24,000 nucleotides of DNA from Tepidiphilus sp. J10 (GCA_945897955.1 CAMDGQ010000001.1:49373-73372); one strand, 5' to 3'. Shown: positions 3,137-18,709, counted from the stretch's first letter. The notes: generated from the sequence alone by a model not told the origin. A program made the numbers and translations.

Positions 3137-3162
3137 GTCGTTCAGAAACTGGATTCCTGACA
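3137..3162 (-). promoter_or_regulatory. ECF-type promoter copy 2, reads leftward toward the 116aa-thioredoxin-145aa operon
   Basis: Minus strand 3162->3137 = TGTCAGGAAT ccagtttctgaa CGAC (then caat). Confidence 0.65.
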
Positions 3163-3262: not shown

Positions 3263-5116
3263 ATGCACCTGCCAGCAAGATTCAGCGGCATTTCCGCGCG
3301 ACTCTATTTCGCCTTTCTTGCGGCTGCCGCGATTCCAGTTGCCATCGCCGGGCTGGTGGGCATTCATTATTCGATTCAGGCCCTGCGCGACCAGACCCTG
3401 ACGCACCTGGACCAGGAGGTCGCCAGCCGGGCGGAAACAGTCGCCCGCTTCATGGAACAACTGGCCAGCGAAGTGTTGTACCTGAGCGCCTCGCCCGCGC
3501 TGGACGAGTGGGTGGAACAGCCGTCCGAAAGTGCCCGGCTGCGTCTGGAGCGCGATCTATCGGTCTTTGCAACGGCGTATCCGTATATCTATCAGGCGCG
3601 TTATCTCGATGTCTCGGGCCGCGAGCGGGTGCGCGTCGACCGTGTCGATCATGCGGTCAATGCTGTCCCCAGCCCGGCTTTGCAGGACAAATCCGACCGC
3701 TATTACTTTCGCGATGCAATGACACTGGCGGCGGGTCAGATTTATGTTTCCCCGCTTGATCTGAACATCGAACATGGCCGGGTGGAAACGCCGGAACGGC
3801 CGGTGATTCGGGTTGCCACGCCGGTCGCCGATGCCAGCGGGGTCAAACGTGGTCTGCTTATCATCAACCTGCACGCGGAACTGTTTCTACGTCAGGTCCA
3901 GCAAATGGCCGAAAGCCATGGCGGCACCGCGTACCTGTTCGATCGGGCCGGTTTTTTCCTGTCGCGATCCGGCCAATCCGCAGTCGAGTCATTCAGGATG
4001 CAGGCCGTCGACGCGCTCGACAGCGCCGTGCCCGGCGCGCTGCTGGCCGAGATTCTGTCAGGCAAACGCGGCGTGGTGGCGGAAGACAGCCAGGTTGTCG
4101 CCTACGCTCCGGTCAGCATGCAACCGATCGCCGGTCACCTGAATTCGCCGCCGCGCGCCTGGGCGCTGGCATTGGCTTACCCGCAAAGCCGCTTTTTCTC
4201 CGCCGTGTTCAATCTATACCTGCTGTATTCCGTCCTGGTCGCCGCGCTGGCGGCAACTGCCATCGCAGGCTGGCTGGTATCGCGCAGTCTGTTGCGGCGA
4301 CTGGTGGACGAACGGCGGGAACAGGATCGGCAATTGTTTCAGCGCGAAAAGATGAACACGTTGGGTGAACTCTCGATGGGCCTGGCGCATGAAATCGGCA
4401 ATCCACTGGCGGGCATGAAAGCGGTGGTGCAGGTGTTGCAGCAGGACGATGCGCCGGATGGATCGTCCAACGCGACGATGCACAAATACCTGCCGAAACT
4501 GGAGAATGAAATCGACCGGCTTTCCAGCTTCCTGCGCACCTTCAATGGTTTCGCCGCCCCCCAGGCGCACCAGCCGATACCTTGCCGATTGGAAGACGTG
4601 CTGGACGATGTGCTGCTCTGGACGCGTAAGGAAGCGCGCGAAAAGGGGATCGAGATTCAGTATCGCCGCTGTGGCAAGGACATCCCGCCGCTACTGGCGG
4701 ACCCGAATCAATTGAAGCAGTTGCTGCTGAATCTGGTCATCAATGCCATCCATGCGATAGACGGGCCCGGCCGTATCACGCTGTCGATGTGCAATTCGCC
4801 ACTCGGCCAGCCCGCCGCGATCTCACAACGGCGGCACATTCACTTTTGCGTCGAGGACGACGGGCCGGGTATCGCCGCTGAAGCCTTGCCGAAAATTTTC
4901 GAACCGTTCTTCACCACACGCCCGAATGGGACAGGTCTGGGATTGGCCGTGGTGAAGAAAATTGCCGATCAGCATGGCGCCACGATCCAGGTGCATACCG
5001 GTCCCAGCGGGCGCGGCAGCCGTTTCGAGCTGGCCTGGCCGGCGGCGGGTATGGACGCGCAGCAACCCGAAGCCGAAGCCTGTGCCGCGAGGCCGACCAT
5101 GAAGGACACCGCATGA
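3263..5116 (+). CDS. Sensor histidine kinase with a large periplasmic Cache-like domain (NtrB/AtoS-type transmitter)
   Basis: Two TM segments (LYFAFLAAAAIPVAIAGLVGI and LYLLYSVLVAALAATAIAGWLV) flank a region of about 270 aa. H-box ELSMGLAHEIGNPL; N-box LLLNLVINAIHA; G1 VEDDGPGI; F IFEPFFTT; G2 GTGLGLAV. The stop overlaps the response-regulator ATG (ATGA). Confidence 0.9.
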   Translation: MHLPARFSGISARLYFAFLAAAAIPVAIAGLVGIHYSIQALRDQTLTHLDQEVASRAETVARFMEQLASEVLYLSASPALDEWVEQPSESARLRLERDLSVFATAYPYIYQARYLDVSGRERVRVDRVDHAVNAVPSPALQDKSDRYYFRDAMTLAAGQIYVSPLDLNIEHGRVETPERPVIRVATPVADASGVKRGLLIINLHAELFLRQVQQMAESHGGTAYLFDRAGFFLSRSGQSAVESFRMQAVDALDSAVPGALLAEILSGKRGVVAEDSQVVAYAPVSMQPIAGHLNSPPRAWALALAYPQSRFFSAVFNLYLLYSVLVAALAATAIAGWLVSRSLLRRLVDERREQDRQLFQREKMNTLGELSMGLAHEIGNPLAGMKAVVQVLQQDDAPDGSSNATMHKYLPKLENEIDRLSSFLRTFNGFAAPQAHQPIPCRLEDVLDDVLLWTRKEAREKGIEIQYRRCGKDIPPLLADPNQLKQLLLNLVINAIHAIDGPGRITLSMCNSPLGQPAAISQRRHIHFCVEDDGPGIAAEALPKIFEPFFTTRPNGTGLGLAVVKKIADQHGATIQVHTGPSGRGSRFELAWPAAGMDAQQPEAEACAARPTMKDTA

Positions 5117-6486
5117 GCAACCGCATCCTGATCGTCGATGACGACGATACCCTGCGCGAAACCCTGGCCGACGTGCTGGCCCGCCACTACGAGGTGGATC
5201 AGGCGGCGGACGCGGCGAGCGCCTTGGCCATCGCCCGCAGTCGTTCATTCGATCTGGTGTTGCTGGATTTGCGCCTGCCCGACGGCAACGGCCTGGAAGT
5301 GTTGCAGCAACTGCACGAAATCGACGAGCGCCTGCTGGTAGTGGTGATGACCGCCTACCCGGAAATTCGCACCGCGGTGACCGCCCTCAAGGCGGGCGCT
5401 TACGATTATCTGAACAAGCCGTTCGATCTGGATGATTTGCGCGGCCTGGTGCGACGCGCGTTGGAAACCCAGCAACTGCGTACCGAGGTGGAGCGGCTGC
5501 GCGCCGCCGTGCCGCCGCTGGCCAATCTGGAAGGCATGATCGGCGCCAGTCCGGCCTTTCTGAGCATGGTGGAAGTCACCCGCCGGATTGCCGCCGCCGC
5601 CCGCACGCCGGTGTTGATCAGCGGCGAATCCGGCACCGGCAAGGAGCGCATCGCGCAGACCATCCACAATCTGTCGAGCCGCGCCGCCGGCCCCTGGGTG
5701 ACATTGAACTGTTCGGCCATCGCCGAAGGTTTGCTGGAATCGGAAATGTTCGGCCACGAAAAGGGCGCGTTCACGCATGCCGTCGCCAGCAAGCGAGGCC
5801 TGCTCGAACTGGCCGACGGCGGCACGTTGTTCCTGGACGAGATCGGCGACCTGTCACCGACGCTGCAACCCAAGCTGCTGCGCGTGATCGAGACCCAGTC
5901 GTTCCGCCGCGTAGGCGGTCAGCGCGAATTGCACGTCGACGTGCGTTTTGTCGCCGCCAGCAACCGTGACTTGAACGAACGCATTCGTCAGGGCCTTTTC
6001 CGTGAAGACTTGTATTACCGCCTGAATGTCGCCGGCATCGACGTGCCGCCCCTGCGCGAGCGGCGCGAGGATATTCCGCAACTGGCGCGGCATTTCCTGG
6101 CCCAGGCCGCCGCAGTGATGGGACTGCAAGTCGTTGATATCGCGCCGCTCGCCGAGACGCGGCTTGCCGCCTATGTCTGGCCTGGCAACGTGCGGGAATT
6201 GCGTAACGTGATGGAGCGCGCCCTGATTCTTTCCGGCGGCGCCAGGATCGAGGCGGAACACTTGCCGAAGGAACTCTGCACCAACGCCGCCTGCCGGTCG
6301 CAGGACGGATCGGCGCTGCCGTTCGCGCTGGCGGACATGGAAAAACTCCATATCGGACGCGTGCTGCGGCATTGCCGCGGCAACAAGACGCATGCCGCCG
6401 CATTGCTGGGCATCACACGGCTGACGTTGCGCAACAAGATTGCGCAGTACGAATTGCTGGAAGGGGCCGAGGAAGGCGAAGCGTAG
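5113..6486 (+). CDS. Sigma-54-dependent response regulator (NtrC family: REC + AAA+ + Fis-type HTH)
   Basis: REC domain (ILIVDDDD..DLVLLDLRLPDGNG..KP). Walker A GESGTGKE; GAFTHA loop; DGGTLFLDEIGDL; WPGNVRELRN; C-terminal HTH AAALLGITRLTLRNKI. Confidence 0.95.
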   Translation: MSNRILIVDDDDTLRETLADVLARHYEVDQAADAASALAIARSRSFDLVLLDLRLPDGNGLEVLQQLHEIDERLLVVVMTAYPEIRTAVTALKAGAYDYLNKPFDLDDLRGLVRRALETQQLRTEVERLRAAVPPLANLEGMIGASPAFLSMVEVTRRIAAAARTPVLISGESGTGKERIAQTIHNLSSRAAGPWVTLNCSAIAEGLLESEMFGHEKGAFTHAVASKRGLLELADGGTLFLDEIGDLSPTLQPKLLRVIETQSFRRVGGQRELHVDVRFVAASNRDLNERIRQGLFREDLYYRLNVAGIDVPPLRERREDIPQLARHFLAQAAAVMGLQVVDIAPLAETRLAAYVWPGNVRELRNVMERALILSGGARIEAEHLPKELCTNAACRSQDGSALPFALADMEKLHIGRVLRHCRGNKTHAAALLGITRLTLRNKIAQYELLEGAEEGEA

Positions 6487-6644
6487 ACCGGTATTCAACC
6501 CGCAAGGGCGTTGCCCTGGCGAAAACCAACCGGCCAGTAATTGACCATTCCGGTTAGTTTCTGACCGGCGCGGACGGCTATTTCATCGCAACGAAAAACG
6601 CTGTGCCTATTTGAAAACAAGGTGTTGGATCAGTTTTTCTCGAT

Positions 6645-6660
6645 TGGCATGCTTGCTGCT
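6645..6660 (+). promoter_or_regulatory. Candidate sigma-54 (-24/-12) promoter for the multiheme cytochrome gene
   Basis: TGGCATgcttgCTGCT compared with the consensus TGGCAC-N5-TTGCW. GG and GC have the correct 12-nt register, with two mismatches. It lies 39 nt upstream of ATG 6699 and directly downstream of a sigma-54 activator gene. Confidence 0.55.
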
Positions 6661-6698
6661 GTTGTCTCGTTGTTTTTTTACGCAGCGAGGGGAATGCC

Positions 6699-8576
6699 AT
6701 GAAGTTTCGTAGCTGGATGTTCAGGTTGATCGGGCTGATTGGTTTGCCCCTGTTTTGCCTCCCCCTGTCCGCCTCGGCGGCCTGGGACGACGACAAGGGC
6801 TGTCTGGCCTGCCACGAGGGTATCGAACGCATCGCCGATACGCCGACCATGAAGGAGTTGTCCTGCACCTTCTGCCACAAGGGCAATGGCGAGGAAGCCA
6901 AGGATGCCAAGGTGGCGCACAAGGGCATGTTCGCCAATCCGGCCGACTTCCGCGTTGCTGACCAGACCTGCGGCATCTGTCACGCCGAGCACTTGGCCAA
7001 CGGCAAGAAATCGCTGCACGCCACCATGGCTGGCATGATCTCCGGTACCCGCTACGGTTTCGGCGCGCAGGATCGCAAGTCCAAGTACGCCACCTATGCC
7101 GTGGACGGCGGCGTCGCCGACCGGCCCGGCGCGCTGCTGAGCCTACTGCAGGTTCCCAAATATGATCCGAAGAAACCGGATAGCGAGACCAACTCCCCCG
7201 GCGACGATTACCTGCGTAACCAGTGCCTGCGCTGCCACCTGTGGAGCGGCGGCGCGCAACAGACCGGCGACGCCCGCGCCAGCGGCTGCGCGGCCTGCCA
7301 CATGGTGTATTCCGACGCCGGCAAGTACACGGGCGGCGACAAGGCCATCGACAAGACCAAGGTCGGTCGGCCCAAGATGCACAAGATCACCACCAAGGTA
7401 CCCGAATATCAGTGTCTGCACTGCCACAACCGGGGCGGTCGCACCGGCGTCTCCTTCATCGGCACCATGGAGAGCGACAACTACGGTTCGCCCTACAAGG
7501 ACGACGGCAGCAAGCAGGGCAGCCTGCACGGCAAGCAATACAACCACCTGACCAAGGACGTGCACTACGAGAAGGGCATGAGTTGCGTCGATTGCCATAC
7601 TTCCCACGATCTGCACGGCGACGGCCGCATCTACGAGAAGAAGGAAAACGCCGTCGAGATTCGCTGCGAGACCTGTCACGGCGACACCAAGAAAGCGGCC
7701 ACCTTCACCACCCTCTGGGGCAACAAGCTGAACAACATCAGCATGAAGAATGGCAAGCCGGTGCTCACGGCCAAACTCACTGGCAAGGAACATCCGGTAC
7801 CGCAGTTGAAGGGCGCCAAGCTGAGCCAGGAAGGCCACACCGCCATGGTCGCCATCCCGAAGCACATGGAGAAACTGGAGTGCTACAGCTGCCACGCCAA
7901 GTGGGCGCCGCAGTGCTATGGATGCCATACCGACCATGACACCGGCAAACCGTCGCGCGACTGGCTGGCGGACGGCAACAATGAAGACCCGTCGAAGAAC
8001 GGCACCATGGGCGCAGTGGGCAATTCCGCCTTCACCTGGAACGAATCGCGCTCCTACCTGCGTTGGGAAACCCCGGTGCTGGGCATTAACGCCAAGGGCA
8101 AGGTGTCGCCGTTCATCCCCGGTTGCCAGGTGGTCTACACCCAGCATGACAGCAAGGAGAAGACCAAGACGGTGAGCAACAAGGTATTCACCACCGTACA
8201 CGGCACCAGCGGCTGGATGCAGAACCCGATCCAGCCCCACACCATTAGCCGATCCGCCCGCACCTGCGCCGATTGCCACATGAGCCGCAAGGCTATCGGC
8301 CTGGGCACCGGCACCTATGACGTCAAGCGCAACTTCCCGGATGGCGGCGGGCCTGACTTCGAGCCGGAACGCATCGTCGATGAGGAAGGCCGCCAACTAC
8401 AGGGCACTACCCACGAAGGCGCGCGGCCCTTCAACAAGGCCGAGCAGCAGCGCATCAGCCGGGTTGGCGCCTGTATCGCCTGCCATGGTTCCGGCAAGGT
8501 GACGCTGCAGAACAAGGCACCGACGGACGAACTGCATACCAAGGCGATCCGTTCTTACCTGAACAAGAAGAAGTGA
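6699..8576 (+). CDS. Secreted multiheme c-type cytochrome (12 CXXCH motifs)
   Basis: Signal peptide MKFRSWMFRLIGLIGLPLFCLPLSASA/AW. CXXCH sites: CLACH, CTFCH, CGICH, CLRCH, CAACH, CLHCH, CVDCH, CETCH, CYSCH, CYGCH, CADCH, CIACH. RBS GAGGGG lies 6 nt upstream. Confidence 0.9.
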   Translation: MKFRSWMFRLIGLIGLPLFCLPLSASAAWDDDKGCLACHEGIERIADTPTMKELSCTFCHKGNGEEAKDAKVAHKGMFANPADFRVADQTCGICHAEHLANGKKSLHATMAGMISGTRYGFGAQDRKSKYATYAVDGGVADRPGALLSLLQVPKYDPKKPDSETNSPGDDYLRNQCLRCHLWSGGAQQTGDARASGCAACHMVYSDAGKYTGGDKAIDKTKVGRPKMHKITTKVPEYQCLHCHNRGGRTGVSFIGTMESDNYGSPYKDDGSKQGSLHGKQYNHLTKDVHYEKGMSCVDCHTSHDLHGDGRIYEKKENAVEIRCETCHGDTKKAATFTTLWGNKLNNISMKNGKPVLTAKLTGKEHPVPQLKGAKLSQEGHTAMVAIPKHMEKLECYSCHAKWAPQCYGCHTDHDTGKPSRDWLADGNNEDPSKNGTMGAVGNSAFTWNESRSYLRWETPVLGINAKGKVSPFIPGCQVVYTQHDSKEKTKTVSNKVFTTVHGTSGWMQNPIQPHTISRSARTCADCHMSRKAIGLGTGTYDVKRNFPDGGGPDFEPERIVDEEGRQLQGTTHEGARPFNKAEQQRISRVGACIACHGSGKVTLQNKAPTDELHTKAIRSYLNKKK

Positions 8577-8591
8577 TGTTTGACTGAAACC

Positions 8592-8617
8592 GGGGCGGGC
8601 CTTGCGCCCGCCCTTTT
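8592..8617 (+). terminator. Rho-independent terminator after the cytochrome gene
   Basis: GGGCGGGC cttgc GCCCGCCC is an 8-bp GC stem (8593-8613) followed by TTTT (8614-8617). Confidence 0.7.
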
Positions 8618-8632
8618 CAATGGAGCAATGCA

Positions 8633-9169
8633 ATGCATGCATTCAATCGTTGGGCCGTGGCGTTGTTGCTGGTTGTCCTGCCCGCGCTGGCAGCCTGTGA
8701 CAAAGCCGGCGGCAAGATGGGAGGCCGCGCCGCCAACAGCGGCGATATCGCCACCGTGCACTTCACCGGCAAAACCGCCGATGGCAAGGTGTTCGAGACC
8801 ACAGAAGGCGGCAAGCCGCGCCAGGTGCATATCGGCGCCAACCTGATTCTGCCGGCTTTCGAACGCGCACTGATCGGCATGAAGCAAGGCGAGAAAAAGA
8901 CCTTCAGCGTGAAATCCGCGCAGGCCTACGGCCCGCGTTTCGAAGATGAAACGATGATTCAGGTCAGCTACAAGTCGAATCAGGCGCATGCGATGGATTA
9001 CCAGGTCGGACAGGTACTGGAAGCCAATATCGAGTATCCCGACGGGCGCAAGGCGAAACGCGAGGTGCGCATCATCGCCTCCGACGAGAAAACCTTTACC
9101 GTCGATGCCAATCACCCCCTGGCCGGCAAGGATCTGACGTTCGAGGTCACGCTGGTTGAACTGCGTTGA
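8633..9169 (+). CDS. FKBP-type peptidyl-prolyl cis-trans isomerase (SlyD-like, insert-in-flap), predicted lipoprotein
   Basis: Lipobox LAAC with Asp at +2 (..VLPALAAC/DKAGG). FKBP motifs VHFTGKTADGKVFETT, ILPAFERALIGMKQGEKK, AYGP and DANHPLAGKDLTFEVTLVEL. Confidence 0.85.
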   Translation: MHAFNRWAVALLLVVLPALAACDKAGGKMGGRAANSGDIATVHFTGKTADGKVFETTEGGKPRQVHIGANLILPAFERALIGMKQGEKKTFSVKSAQAYGPRFEDETMIQVSYKSNQAHAMDYQVGQVLEANIEYPDGRKAKREVRIIASDEKTFTVDANHPLAGKDLTFEVTLVELR

Positions 9170-12027: not shown

Positions 12028-12053
12028 GTCGTCGCTCGCTTGAATTCCTGACA
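12028..12053 (-). promoter_or_regulatory. ECF-type promoter copy 3, reads leftward toward the cytochrome c gene
   Basis: Minus strand 12053->12028 = TGTCAGGAAT tcaagcgagcga CGAC (then tcaa). CGAC ends 50 nt before ATG 11978. Confidence 0.65.
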
Positions 12054-12162
12054 AATCATTTCGGGAACAAAACGCCCTCGTTCAGGACCGATTGGTTCAT
12101 AATCGCAGCGCACCGCGTACCGAATTCACTTGAAGAATCTTCCGCGCGAGAGGAGAAGGCTT

Positions 12163-12759
12163 ATGAGCGACAGCATTCTGGGTTCACCGGAGACCTGGTT
12201 GGATGAGCATGGCGCCGCGCTCTACAAATATGCGCTGGTGCATACCCGCGACCAGCACAAGGCCGAGGAAGCGGTGCAGGAAACCTTGCTCGCCGCTTTG
12301 CAGGCACGCGACCGATTTTCCGGTGGCGCATCCGCACGCACCTGGCTGATCGGCATCCTCAAGCACAAGATCATCGATATGTTCCGGCACGACGCGCGCG
12401 AGGTACAACTGGACGACCCGGACGAACTAGCCGATGCGGATGAAATGCAGGATACCGACAACTTTGCGTCTGACGGACACTGGCAACACAAGTTGTCCGA
12501 TTGGGGCAATCCGCAAGAATTGCTGGAACGCGGCCAATTCATGATCATCCTGCAACGCTGCATGGATGCCTTGCCACCGCGACTGGCGCGACTTTTCCTG
12601 TTGCGCGAGGTGATGGAAGAAAATACTGAAAACATTTGTCAGGAATTGGCGATAACGCCGACCAACCTGTGGACGATGCTGTATCGGGCCCGTTTGGGGC
12701 TCCGGCAGTGTCTCGACAGAAATTGGGTTGGCAACGCAATGCAGGCTGCCCGGAGGTGA
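12163..12759 (+). CDS. ECF (sigma-70 group IV) RNA polymerase sigma factor
   Basis: Region 2 EEAVQETLLAALQARDRF..TWLIGILKHKIIDMFRH. Region 4 LPPRLARLFLLREVMEENTENICQELAITPTNLWTMLYRARLGLRQCL. Start is at ATG 12163 (GAGGAG 7 nt upstream); the track start at 12130 is a TTG. Confidence 0.9.
   Translation: MSDSILGSPETWLDEHGAALYKYALVHTRDQHKAEEAVQETLLAALQARDRFSGGASARTWLIGILKHKIIDMFRHDAREVQLDDPDELADADEMQDTDNFASDGHWQHKLSDWGNPQELLERGQFMIILQRCMDALPPRLARLFLLREVMEENTENICQELAITPTNLWTMLYRARLGLRQCLDRNWVGNAMQAARR
12637..12662 (+). promoter_or_regulatory. ECF-type promoter copy 4, internal to the sigma gene, reads rightward toward the anti-sigma and GGDEF/EAL genes
   Basis: TGTCAGGAAT tggcgataacgc CGAC (then caac), embedded in the codons for ICQELAITPTN. 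CGAC ends 104 nt before ATG 12766. Confidence 0.6.
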
Positions 12760-18563: not shown

Positions 18564-18589
18564 GTCGCTGCACACGCGGATTCCTGACA
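18564..18589 (-). promoter_or_regulatory. ECF-type promoter copy 5, reads leftward toward the acyltransferase operon
   Basis: Minus strand 18589->18564 = TGTCAGGAAT ccgcgtgtgcag CGAC (then taat). Confidence 0.65.
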
Positions 18590-18683: not shown

Positions 18684-18709
18684 TGTCAGGAATTGACGTG
18701 TGCGCCGAC
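18684..18709 (+). promoter_or_regulatory. ECF-type promoter copy 6, reads rightward toward the RiPP precursor operon
   Basis: TGTCAGGAAT tgacgtgtgcgc CGAC (then caaa). CGAC ends 100 nt before ATG 18809. Confidence 0.65.

Follow-up and report, generated by a model that had tools for sequence, protein, structure and literature searches.

A sensor-linked 12-heme cytochrome of the ExtM superfamily and its neighboring prolyl isomerase in Tepidiphilus sp. J10

Periplasmic 12-heme cytochromes resembling ExtM are very widespread, yet they have neither an assigned activity nor a solved structure. In a 24,000-nucleotide stretch of the genome of Tepidiphilus sp. J10 (GCA_945897955.1, CAMDGQ010000001.1:49373-73372; hereafter, the window), one such cytochrome is encoded within a run of four co-directional genes on the plus strand, alongside a sensor histidine kinase, an NtrC-family sigma-54 activator, and an FKBP-type prolyl isomerase. 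We favor, at a probability of about 0.6, a reading in which these genes constitute a mobile, self-contained accessory module that is switched on through its sensor, with the cytochrome as its redox enzyme and the FKBP as the helper of that enzyme. An invariant cysteine of the cytochrome has a selenocysteine counterpart in relatives, and this equivalence makes a periplasmic redox enzyme, rather than a wire, the most likely role for the protein. By analogy with a known polysulfide reductase, the substrate class is probably a sulfur or selenium compound.

The open reading frame list, the translations, and the Pfam and NCBIfam scans recovered all of the coordinates and features described in an earlier note on this DNA. 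The kinase (positions 3263 to 5116; 617 amino acids) has two hydrophobic segments (residues 10 to 38 and 311 to 344), predicted to span the membrane, that flank a periplasmic dCache_1/HK_sensor_dom_bact domain of ~270 amino acids; HisKA (H376) and HATPase_c domains follow, and Pfam reports no HAMP domain. The start of the regulator gene (5113 to 6486) overlaps the stop codon of the kinase gene as ATGA, and its product carries an NtrC-type domain set composed of REC (D52 and K102; 99.9 bits), an AAA+ Sigma54_activat domain with a GAFTHA loop (218.7 bits), AAA_lid_14, and HTH_8 (46.5 bits). After an intergenic region of 212 bp (6487 to 6698) comes the cytochrome gene (6699 to 8576), whose 625-residue product has a Sec-type signal peptide (residues 1 to 27, ending …SASA before AW) and exactly 12 CXXCH motifs. 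The FKBP gene (8633 to 9169; 178 amino acids) lies directly 3′ of it.

A homology search with the cytochrome returned more than 2000 homologues that are 48 to 60% identical to the window protein, none of which has been named. Their hosts include Shewanella, Ferrimonas, Marinobacter, Halomonas, Desulfuromonas, Geobacter, cable bacteria, Nitrospirota, Methylomirabilis, Binatia, and Lentisphaerota, among others, with identities of 55 to 60% in these groups; across phyla, the median identity is 58%. Most members of the family are orphan genes. The best NCBIfam model for the window protein is ExtM (NF040943), but its score of 278 bits falls far short of the equivalog cut-off of 800, whereas true ExtM proteins score 938 to 1104. 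The ExtN, Rieske (ExtO), and cytochrome b (ExtP) genes that accompany ExtM are missing from the window, and a search for ExtN elsewhere in the genome matched only the cytochrome itself. We therefore rejected the ExtM equivalog as an assignment. Compared with true ExtM proteins from relatives of Geobacter argillaceus, however, the window cytochrome is 28 to 29% identical over residues 31 to 617 (E = 1e-60 to 1e-71), and all 12 heme motifs of the two proteins stand in register, one to one. The window cytochrome is thus, by alignment, a distant full-length homologue of ExtM and a member of an ExtM superfamily. The earlier note had left the electron-transfer context of the cytochrome open; that context is now narrowed to this superfamily and to the Cys/Sec position described below.

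ExtM itself (GSU2935, from the extHIJKLMNOPQS cluster of Geobacter sulfurreducens) is a 12-heme, 68-kDa protein of unassigned function whose gene cluster also specifies a 10-heme protein, a Rieske protein, and a cytochrome b (PMC5877670). The window cytochrome is similar to it in size and shares with it a cysteine in a P-G-C-Q motif in addition to the aligned heme motifs. Residues H241, Y262, H277, K279, Y281, R451, R521, K531, and H572, on the other hand, are invariant and specific to the window family. Positions 107 and 306 hold histidine in the window family and methionine in ExtM and in the selenocysteine forms. Because of this His-to-Met exchange, we take these two positions to be axial ligands, so that two hemes are probably His/His-ligated in the window family and His/Met-ligated in ExtM and the selenocysteine forms. 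The His/His ligation would be expected to lower the heme potentials in the window branch.

An argument for catalysis comes from the cysteine. We aligned 194 sequences of the family, 185 of which have 12 CXXCH motifs. Only 11 non-motif histidines are conserved in the alignment, one of which falls inside a heme motif, and no methionine is. Cys476, encoded at 8124 to 8126 on the plus strand, is present in all 194 sequences and in 4 of 4 ExtM proteins. A stop-readthrough search of 401 Desulfobacterota genomes found, in 20 of them, a homologue (33 to 39% identical) interrupted by exactly one in-frame TGA. In each of the 11 TGA forms that we fetched (L277 to L287), the TGA aligns with Cys476 inside a P-G-[C/U]-Q motif and is followed by a hairpin of 5 to 9 bp that starts ~16 to 21 nt 3′ of it. 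The selB gene is present in all five of the TGA-form genomes tested, and the 12 heme motifs, together with Arg245, Arg248, and Arg576, are common to the window family, ExtM, and the TGA forms. Judged from these alignments, the in-frame TGA is read as selenocysteine, and Cys476 is its counterpart. The occurrence of Cys or Sec at a single invariant position usually marks a catalytic redox residue, which favors reading the cytochrome as an enzyme. Several of the TGA-form genomes also hold a Cys-type copy that is 51 to 55% identical to the window cytochrome. A metagenome scan for TGA at the Cys476 motif was defeated by the degeneracy of the pattern, with no relative encoded among the 80 loci listed, and an Rfam scan of the TGA-form loci returned tRNAs only.

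The closest precedent in mechanism is MccSep (ExtKL; GSU2937-2936), a pentaheme polysulfide reductase whose gene lies directly 5′ of ExtM in Geobacter. Its C-terminal domain is rich in beta structure, and a loop of this domain carries the selenocysteine, which acts beside a His/Cys-ligated heme (PMC13510729). An AlphaFold2 model of the window cytochrome, built from 134 sequences (predicted local distance difference test [pLDDT] score, 88.3; predicted template modeling score, 0.87), likewise contains a beta-rich domain at residues ~403 to 510. Both proteins are periplasmic, and, as in MccSep, the Cys/Sec position of the window cytochrome is placed on a loop of its beta-rich domain. MccSep differs in having 5 hemes and a selenocysteine, as opposed to 12 hemes and a cysteine, and the likeness is one of mechanism, for which we claim no sequence homology.

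We next consider how the cytochrome is linked to the other genes of the module. We sampled 83 loci of the cytochrome family, 80 from species-representative genomes and three by exact look-up, and added others by a reverse search from the sensor domain. A kinase and a sigma-54 regulator adjoin the cytochrome gene in two distant lineages. The beta-proteobacterial lineage comprises the window, L004, L120, and L121, and the gene set recurs there in surroundings that are unrelated to those of the window: L121 has the gene order of the window, but 3′ of a nuo operon; L120 has cytochrome and FKBP, then three small genes, then kinase and regulator; and L004 runs from kinase through regulator to cytochrome, where the end of the contig cuts the locus. 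The kinase orthologues in L120 and L121 retain 66 to 78% identity in the sensor domain. In the second, Desulfuromonadia-type lineage (L001, L024, and L044), the order is cytochrome, kinase, regulator, at sensor identities of 32 to 36% and regulator identities of 48 to 49%. Overall, the pair is present in only ~6% of the sampled family loci. Because most members of the family are orphan genes with neither regulators nor FKBP, the gene distribution marks the kinase/regulator pair and the FKBP as lineage-specific add-ons.

The intergenic region upstream of the cytochrome gene contains a predicted sigma-54 promoter, as the earlier note had proposed. Its -24/-12 element, TGGCATGCTTGCTGCT (6645 to 6660, plus strand), lies 54 nt 5′ of the ATG, fits the GG-N10-GC / TGGCAC-N5-TTGCW pattern, and is the sole match to TGGCAY-N5-YTGCT in the window, where 0.08 would be expected; upstream sites accompany it, and rpoN is present in the genome. 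Two dyads 20 bp apart, GGCCAG-TAA-TTGACC (6532 to 6546, plus strand) and GGTTAG-TTT-CTGACC (6552 to 6566, plus strand), are putative regulator sites. Both are related to GGTCAG-N3-CTGACC, a perfect copy of which occurs in L121, and nowhere else in the 3.9-Mb genome are two such dyads closer together than 43 bp. Between the dyads and the promoter lies an integration host factor (IHF)-like site, AAACAAGGTGTTG (6615 to 6627, plus strand), which departs from the consensus WATCAANNNNTTR by one mismatch, and a ribosome-binding site, AGGGGAA, is found at 6688 to 6694 on the same strand. When the promoter regions of the window, L004, L121, and L120 are aligned, all of these elements are conserved: the dyad pair, the IHF-like site (which matches the consensus exactly in the latter three), the -24/-12 element at 54 to 56 nt before the ATG, and an AGGGGAA that is invariant in all four.

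Sigma-54 sites also track the kinase/regulator pair across the family. We scanned the 78 loci whose matched region is preceded by at least 150 nt, allowing up to two mismatches within 350 nt upstream, and found a site 5′ of the cytochrome gene in three of them (the window, L004, and L001; background, 0.048 per locus). All three have the kinase and sigma-54 regulator adjacent, and L120 and L121 add two more loci with both the site and the pair. The layout is that of a classical NtrC-class promoter, and direct control of the cytochrome gene by the adjacent pair is well supported on these comparative grounds. The suggestion that the pair is dedicated to the cytochrome thereby gains support from its adjacency in two lineages, from the sites that track it, from the conserved layout, and from the unique dyad pair.

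In domain order, tandem upstream sites, IHF-like site, and -24/-12 promoter, the system resembles AtoSC, ZraSR, and NtrBC. It differs from them in its dCache sensor and in the GAFTHA/GAFTDA form of the regulator loop, an unusual form common to the cytochrome-linked regulators, and the window regulator falls below every equivalog cut-off (AtoC, 470 versus 714; ZraR, 379 versus 760). The sensor domain matches only generic dCache structures. Paralogous sensors that are 50 to 59% identical and bear a HAMP domain occur with a sigma-54 regulator in Rhodocyclales and Burkholderiales metagenome-assembled genomes (L122, L123, and L124). In these genomes, the products of the neighboring operon are a membrane protein resembling CydA, two c-type cytochromes, a protein with multi-c and EB_dh domains, and two PCP_red-domain proteins. 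This context hints at a respiratory cue for the sensor.

The FKBP is of the SlpA/SlyD type. It scores 70.5 bits against FKBP_C in Pfam, and its residues 32 to 177 align with SlpA (4dt4) and SlyD chains, the insert-in-flap part included. Its lipobox, LAAC, places Asp at +2 after Cys22, and because of this lipoprotein signal, we predict that it is a lipoprotein facing the periplasm. An FKBP gene lies directly 3′ of the cytochrome gene in 11 loci (the window, L005, L007 to L011, L013, L078, L120, and L121), and at all 11, its product is marked for export by a lipobox or by a Sec-type signal peptide. These loci have varied surroundings, and cytochrome identity among them drops to as low as 47%. 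The window genome has a single FKBP copy of this kind. Neither the cytochrome nor an FKBP that is more than 35% identical is encoded in any of 150 further genomes from this order; a complete genome of the same genus likewise lacks any FKBP match at E ≤ 1e-10. Because the two genes are adjacent in 11 loci and are both absent from those 150 genomes, we conclude that they are co-inherited. This co-inheritance supports, at the level of gene content, the suggestion of the earlier note that the FKBP is a dedicated folding helper.

Prolyl isomerases have been placed beside other multiheme systems. One such isomerase is MccB of the mcc sulfite-reductase cluster of Wolinella. In the Uet complex, the prolyl isomerase UetB is encoded within the multiheme cytochrome cluster (PMC10734462). 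UetB and the window FKBP both adjoin a large multiheme cytochrome, and both are presumed to aid maturation, but the cytochrome families differ, and the window module has no adjacent porin or membrane partner; the likeness drawn here is one of gene arrangement.

Between the cytochrome and FKBP genes lies a G+C-rich hairpin with a T-run (8592 to 8617, plus strand), which could be a terminator or an attenuator. The hairpin proper (8592 to 8614) has a 9-bp G+C-rich stem followed by TTTT, and the 56-nt spacer folds at -28 kcal/mol; a simple terminator scan passed over it solely because the T-run has four T residues instead of five. An equivalent hairpin and T-run occupies the same place in 11 of 11 FKBP-bearing loci. 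The strong terminator of the earlier note is thus present as a structure, while its role is now left as two alternatives.

Taken together, these data suggest the following scenario. The periplasmic dCache domain of the kinase would bind a small molecule, whereupon the kinase would phosphorylate the NtrC-type regulator. The regulator would then bind the two dyads, ~90 to 110 bp 5′ of the sigma-54 promoter, and a DNA bend at the IHF-like site may assist it in switching on transcription of the cytochrome gene. The hairpin might pass only part of this transcription on into the FKBP gene, or it might instead keep the two genes on separate transcripts. The FKBP would keep the long, proline-containing apoprotein competent while 12 hemes are attached to it. 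Once exported by the Sec route, the soluble periplasmic cytochrome would act as a redox enzyme, with Cys476, on the P-G-C-Q loop of the beta-rich domain, acting at or on a heme in the manner of the selenocysteine and cysteine of MccSep. The protein would exchange electrons, in one direction or the other, with the periplasmic cytochrome pool at large. The four-gene set may move between genomes as a self-contained accessory module. Within this scenario, the gene content, the conserved promoter layout, the co-inheritance, the homology to ExtM, and the equivalence of Cys and Sec are shown by the comparisons above, whereas binding by the regulator, the client of the FKBP, catalysis, and the substrate class are inferred.

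This scenario competes with simpler explanations of its parts. The cytochrome might do nothing but carry or store electrons, serving as a periplasmic wire or capacitor that links membrane quinol dehydrogenases to other redox proteins. Such a role would suit its homology to ExtM, given the Rieske/cytochrome b set and 10-heme protein encoded with the latter (PMC5877670), as well as the uniform CXXCH motifs, the apparent bis-His ligation of most hemes, and a host genome with many other multiheme cytochromes to be connected. We nevertheless consider it doubtful. Conservation across phyla is very high, and numerous polar positions with no part in heme binding are invariant; the unchanging periplasmic cysteine has no pairing partner and is selenocysteine in relatives, as befits a catalytic residue; a sensor dedicated to induction fits a function tied to a particular substrate; and no partner gene is fixed. 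Were the protein an enzyme of nitrogen-oxide metabolism, of the NrfA or octaheme nitrite reductase type and acting on nitrite, hydroxylamine, or NO, some of its hosts (Nitrospira and Methylomirabilis) would fit as nitrogen-cycle organisms, and Y204, three residues past a heme His, would recall the catalytic Tyr of NrfA. A search of the PDB with the single cytochrome sequence gave nothing useful; with the family profile, it gave local matches only, to Escherichia coli NrfA over residues 261 to 359 (E = 9e-5) and to the octaheme nitrite reductase TvNiR in collinear stretches at residues 28 to 98 and 271 to 334 (E = 1.4e-3). These two alignments, however, imply conflicting heme correspondences, the protein has no CXXCK motif and scores 17 bits against an NCBIfam NrfA cut-off of 595, ExtM and the selenocysteine forms do not retain H277 and Y204, and Foldseek found no match in the PDB, and hence no NrfA-like fold, for the AlphaFold2 model despite its pLDDT score of 88. 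We regard a nitrogen-oxide enzyme as quite improbable, and a redox enzyme of the ExtM superfamily accordingly retains our preference.

The linkage of the remaining genes to this enzyme can also be disputed. It is conceivable that the kinase/regulator pair serves other genes and that its place upstream of the cytochrome is incidental, as the paralogous HAMP-bearing sensors and sigma-54 regulators that adjoin a different operon (CydA-like protein, c-type cytochromes, and EB_dh) might suggest. The conserved promoter, the unique dyad pair, and the co-occurrence in L120 and L121 already disfavor this idea, to which we assign very little credence. The FKBP could be a general periplasmic chaperone with its own transcription, placed beside the cytochrome by chance; the terminator-like hairpin between the two genes and the many family members without a neighboring FKBP speak for this. 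Its position in 11 loci with differing surroundings, down to 47% cytochrome identity, its status as the only copy in the genome, and the lack of a homologue above 35% identity in the 150 related, cytochrome-free genomes speak against it, and we think it unlikely. Several observations weigh against the module of sensor, enzyme, and helper that we favor. The sigma-54-contact loop of the regulator reads GAFTHA and not GAFTGA; the cytochrome-linked orthologues carry GAFTDA, and most other activators in this genome have GAFTGA. Locus L005 combines a 78% identical cytochrome with the FKBP yet lacks a sigma-54 site, and its genome has no sensor orthologue, the best match there being 33% identical and on another contig. 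Approximately 90% of the family loci are without kinase/regulator and FKBP, and the cytochrome as such thus requires neither. Termination at the hairpin could also be complete, in which case the FKBP would be a separate unit. With respect to catalysis, RNAalifold found no common selenocysteine insertion sequence structure in the TGA forms, the stems differing in register from one to another. Every heme motif of the window cytochrome, moreover, is a CXXCH, and none of its hemes could be singled out as having an open coordination site.

We offer a broader proposal more tentatively still, as one that is possible but that we would not expect to hold in full. The whole ExtM superfamily may consist of 12-heme sulfur or selenium oxidoreductases whose Cys/Sec residue, carried by the P-G-[C/U]-Q loop, does its work next to a heme, as larger analogues of MccSep. 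The window branch would then provide sulfur oxidizers with a self-sufficient periplasmic enzyme for sulfur compounds that is induced by its own substrate; the dCache kinase would sense this substrate, and the private periplasmic FKBP would serve as a c-type cytochrome maturation factor. The regulatory logic of the module is ordinary; its interest lies in a widespread and unstudied cytochrome family, in the Cys/Sec position, and in a sensor, promoter, and helper that can be put to use. A dedicated sensor, promoter, and helper provide a handle on the function and substrate of the entire family, and the Cys/Sec equivalence, besides arguing for catalysis, supplies a concrete residue to mutate. As for cytochrome c maturation, the pairing of a periplasmic FKBP with a single cytochrome allows the idea of a client-specific helper to be put to the test. 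The findings may also extend periplasmic sulfur chemistry by one step, in sulfur oxidizers and sulfur reducers alike.

The profile and structure searches called for by the earlier note, against the Otr/NrfA, MccA, and Mtr types, placed the protein in none of these families and in the ExtM superfamily instead. A porin-cytochrome conduit of the Mtr/Mto/DmsE kind was rejected on a TIGR03508 score of 22 bits versus 192. MccA sulfite reductase, which has eight hemes including one bound by CX15CH, was rejected on the 12 plain CXXCH motifs without an extended motif, on the absence of any MccA family among the matches, and on the lack of adjacent Fe-S or NrfD genes for the expected MccC/MccD partners. 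No porin, quinol dehydrogenase, or Fe-S partner adjoins the module in the window, in keeping with the earlier note, and none recurs across the 83 family loci. The surrounding window genes are unrelated to electron-transfer partners, encoding a glycogen debranching enzyme, a DUF2934 protein, a thioredoxin-like protein, a DsrE-like protein, a CMD-family protein, an extracytoplasmic function (ECF) sigma factor, and a GGDEF-EAL protein. When we looked for an empty insertion site by synteny with a same-genus genome, only the DsrE-like and ECF sigma genes were recognizable, on different contigs.

The genome holds SoxB, DsrA, and RuBisCO, from which we take the host to be a sulfur-oxidizing autotroph, and it is rich in other multiheme cytochromes for such an organism. 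Contig C61 (1 to 6888) encodes an 862-amino-acid, 11-heme protein beside tri- and tetraheme proteins, in an arrangement resembling a Uet- or Mto-like cluster, and contig C54 (19822 to 27727) encodes 11- and 9-heme proteins. A 600-amino-acid NrfA-like protein with seven CXXCH motifs (98 bits) is encoded on contig C26 (5444 to 7243), and an ExtKL-like pentaheme protein on contig C7 (7810 to 9333).

Further neighbors of the cytochrome gene were noted in particular lineages. In five Thermodesulfobacteriota loci (L049, L057, L058, L062, and L074), genes for a conserved 463-amino-acid protein with a faint porin-like match and for a 339-amino-acid protein precede it, and no other lineage has comparable neighbors. 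Shewanella loci have small conserved open reading frames, a 95-amino-acid family 5′ of the gene (L002, L015, and L027) and a 144-amino-acid family 3′ of it (L022, L026, L045, and L080), neither with a Pfam match; in L002, a called 130-amino-acid gene lies directly 3′. The window also contains six exact copies of TGTCAGGAAT-N12-CGAC (0.02 expected), at 1784 to 1809, 3137 to 3162, 12028 to 12053, and 18564 to 18589 on the minus strand and at 12637 to 12662 and 18684 to 18709 on the plus strand. They look like promoters of the regulon of the ECF sigma factor encoded at 12130 to 12759. None drives the cytochrome module, and the copy at 3137 to 3162 faces away from the kinase gene. In Nitrospirota and Lentisphaerota (L030, L039, L040, L042, and L073), by comparison, an ECF sigma factor gene lies just 5′ of the cytochrome gene, which suggests another regulatory solution for the same cytochrome family.

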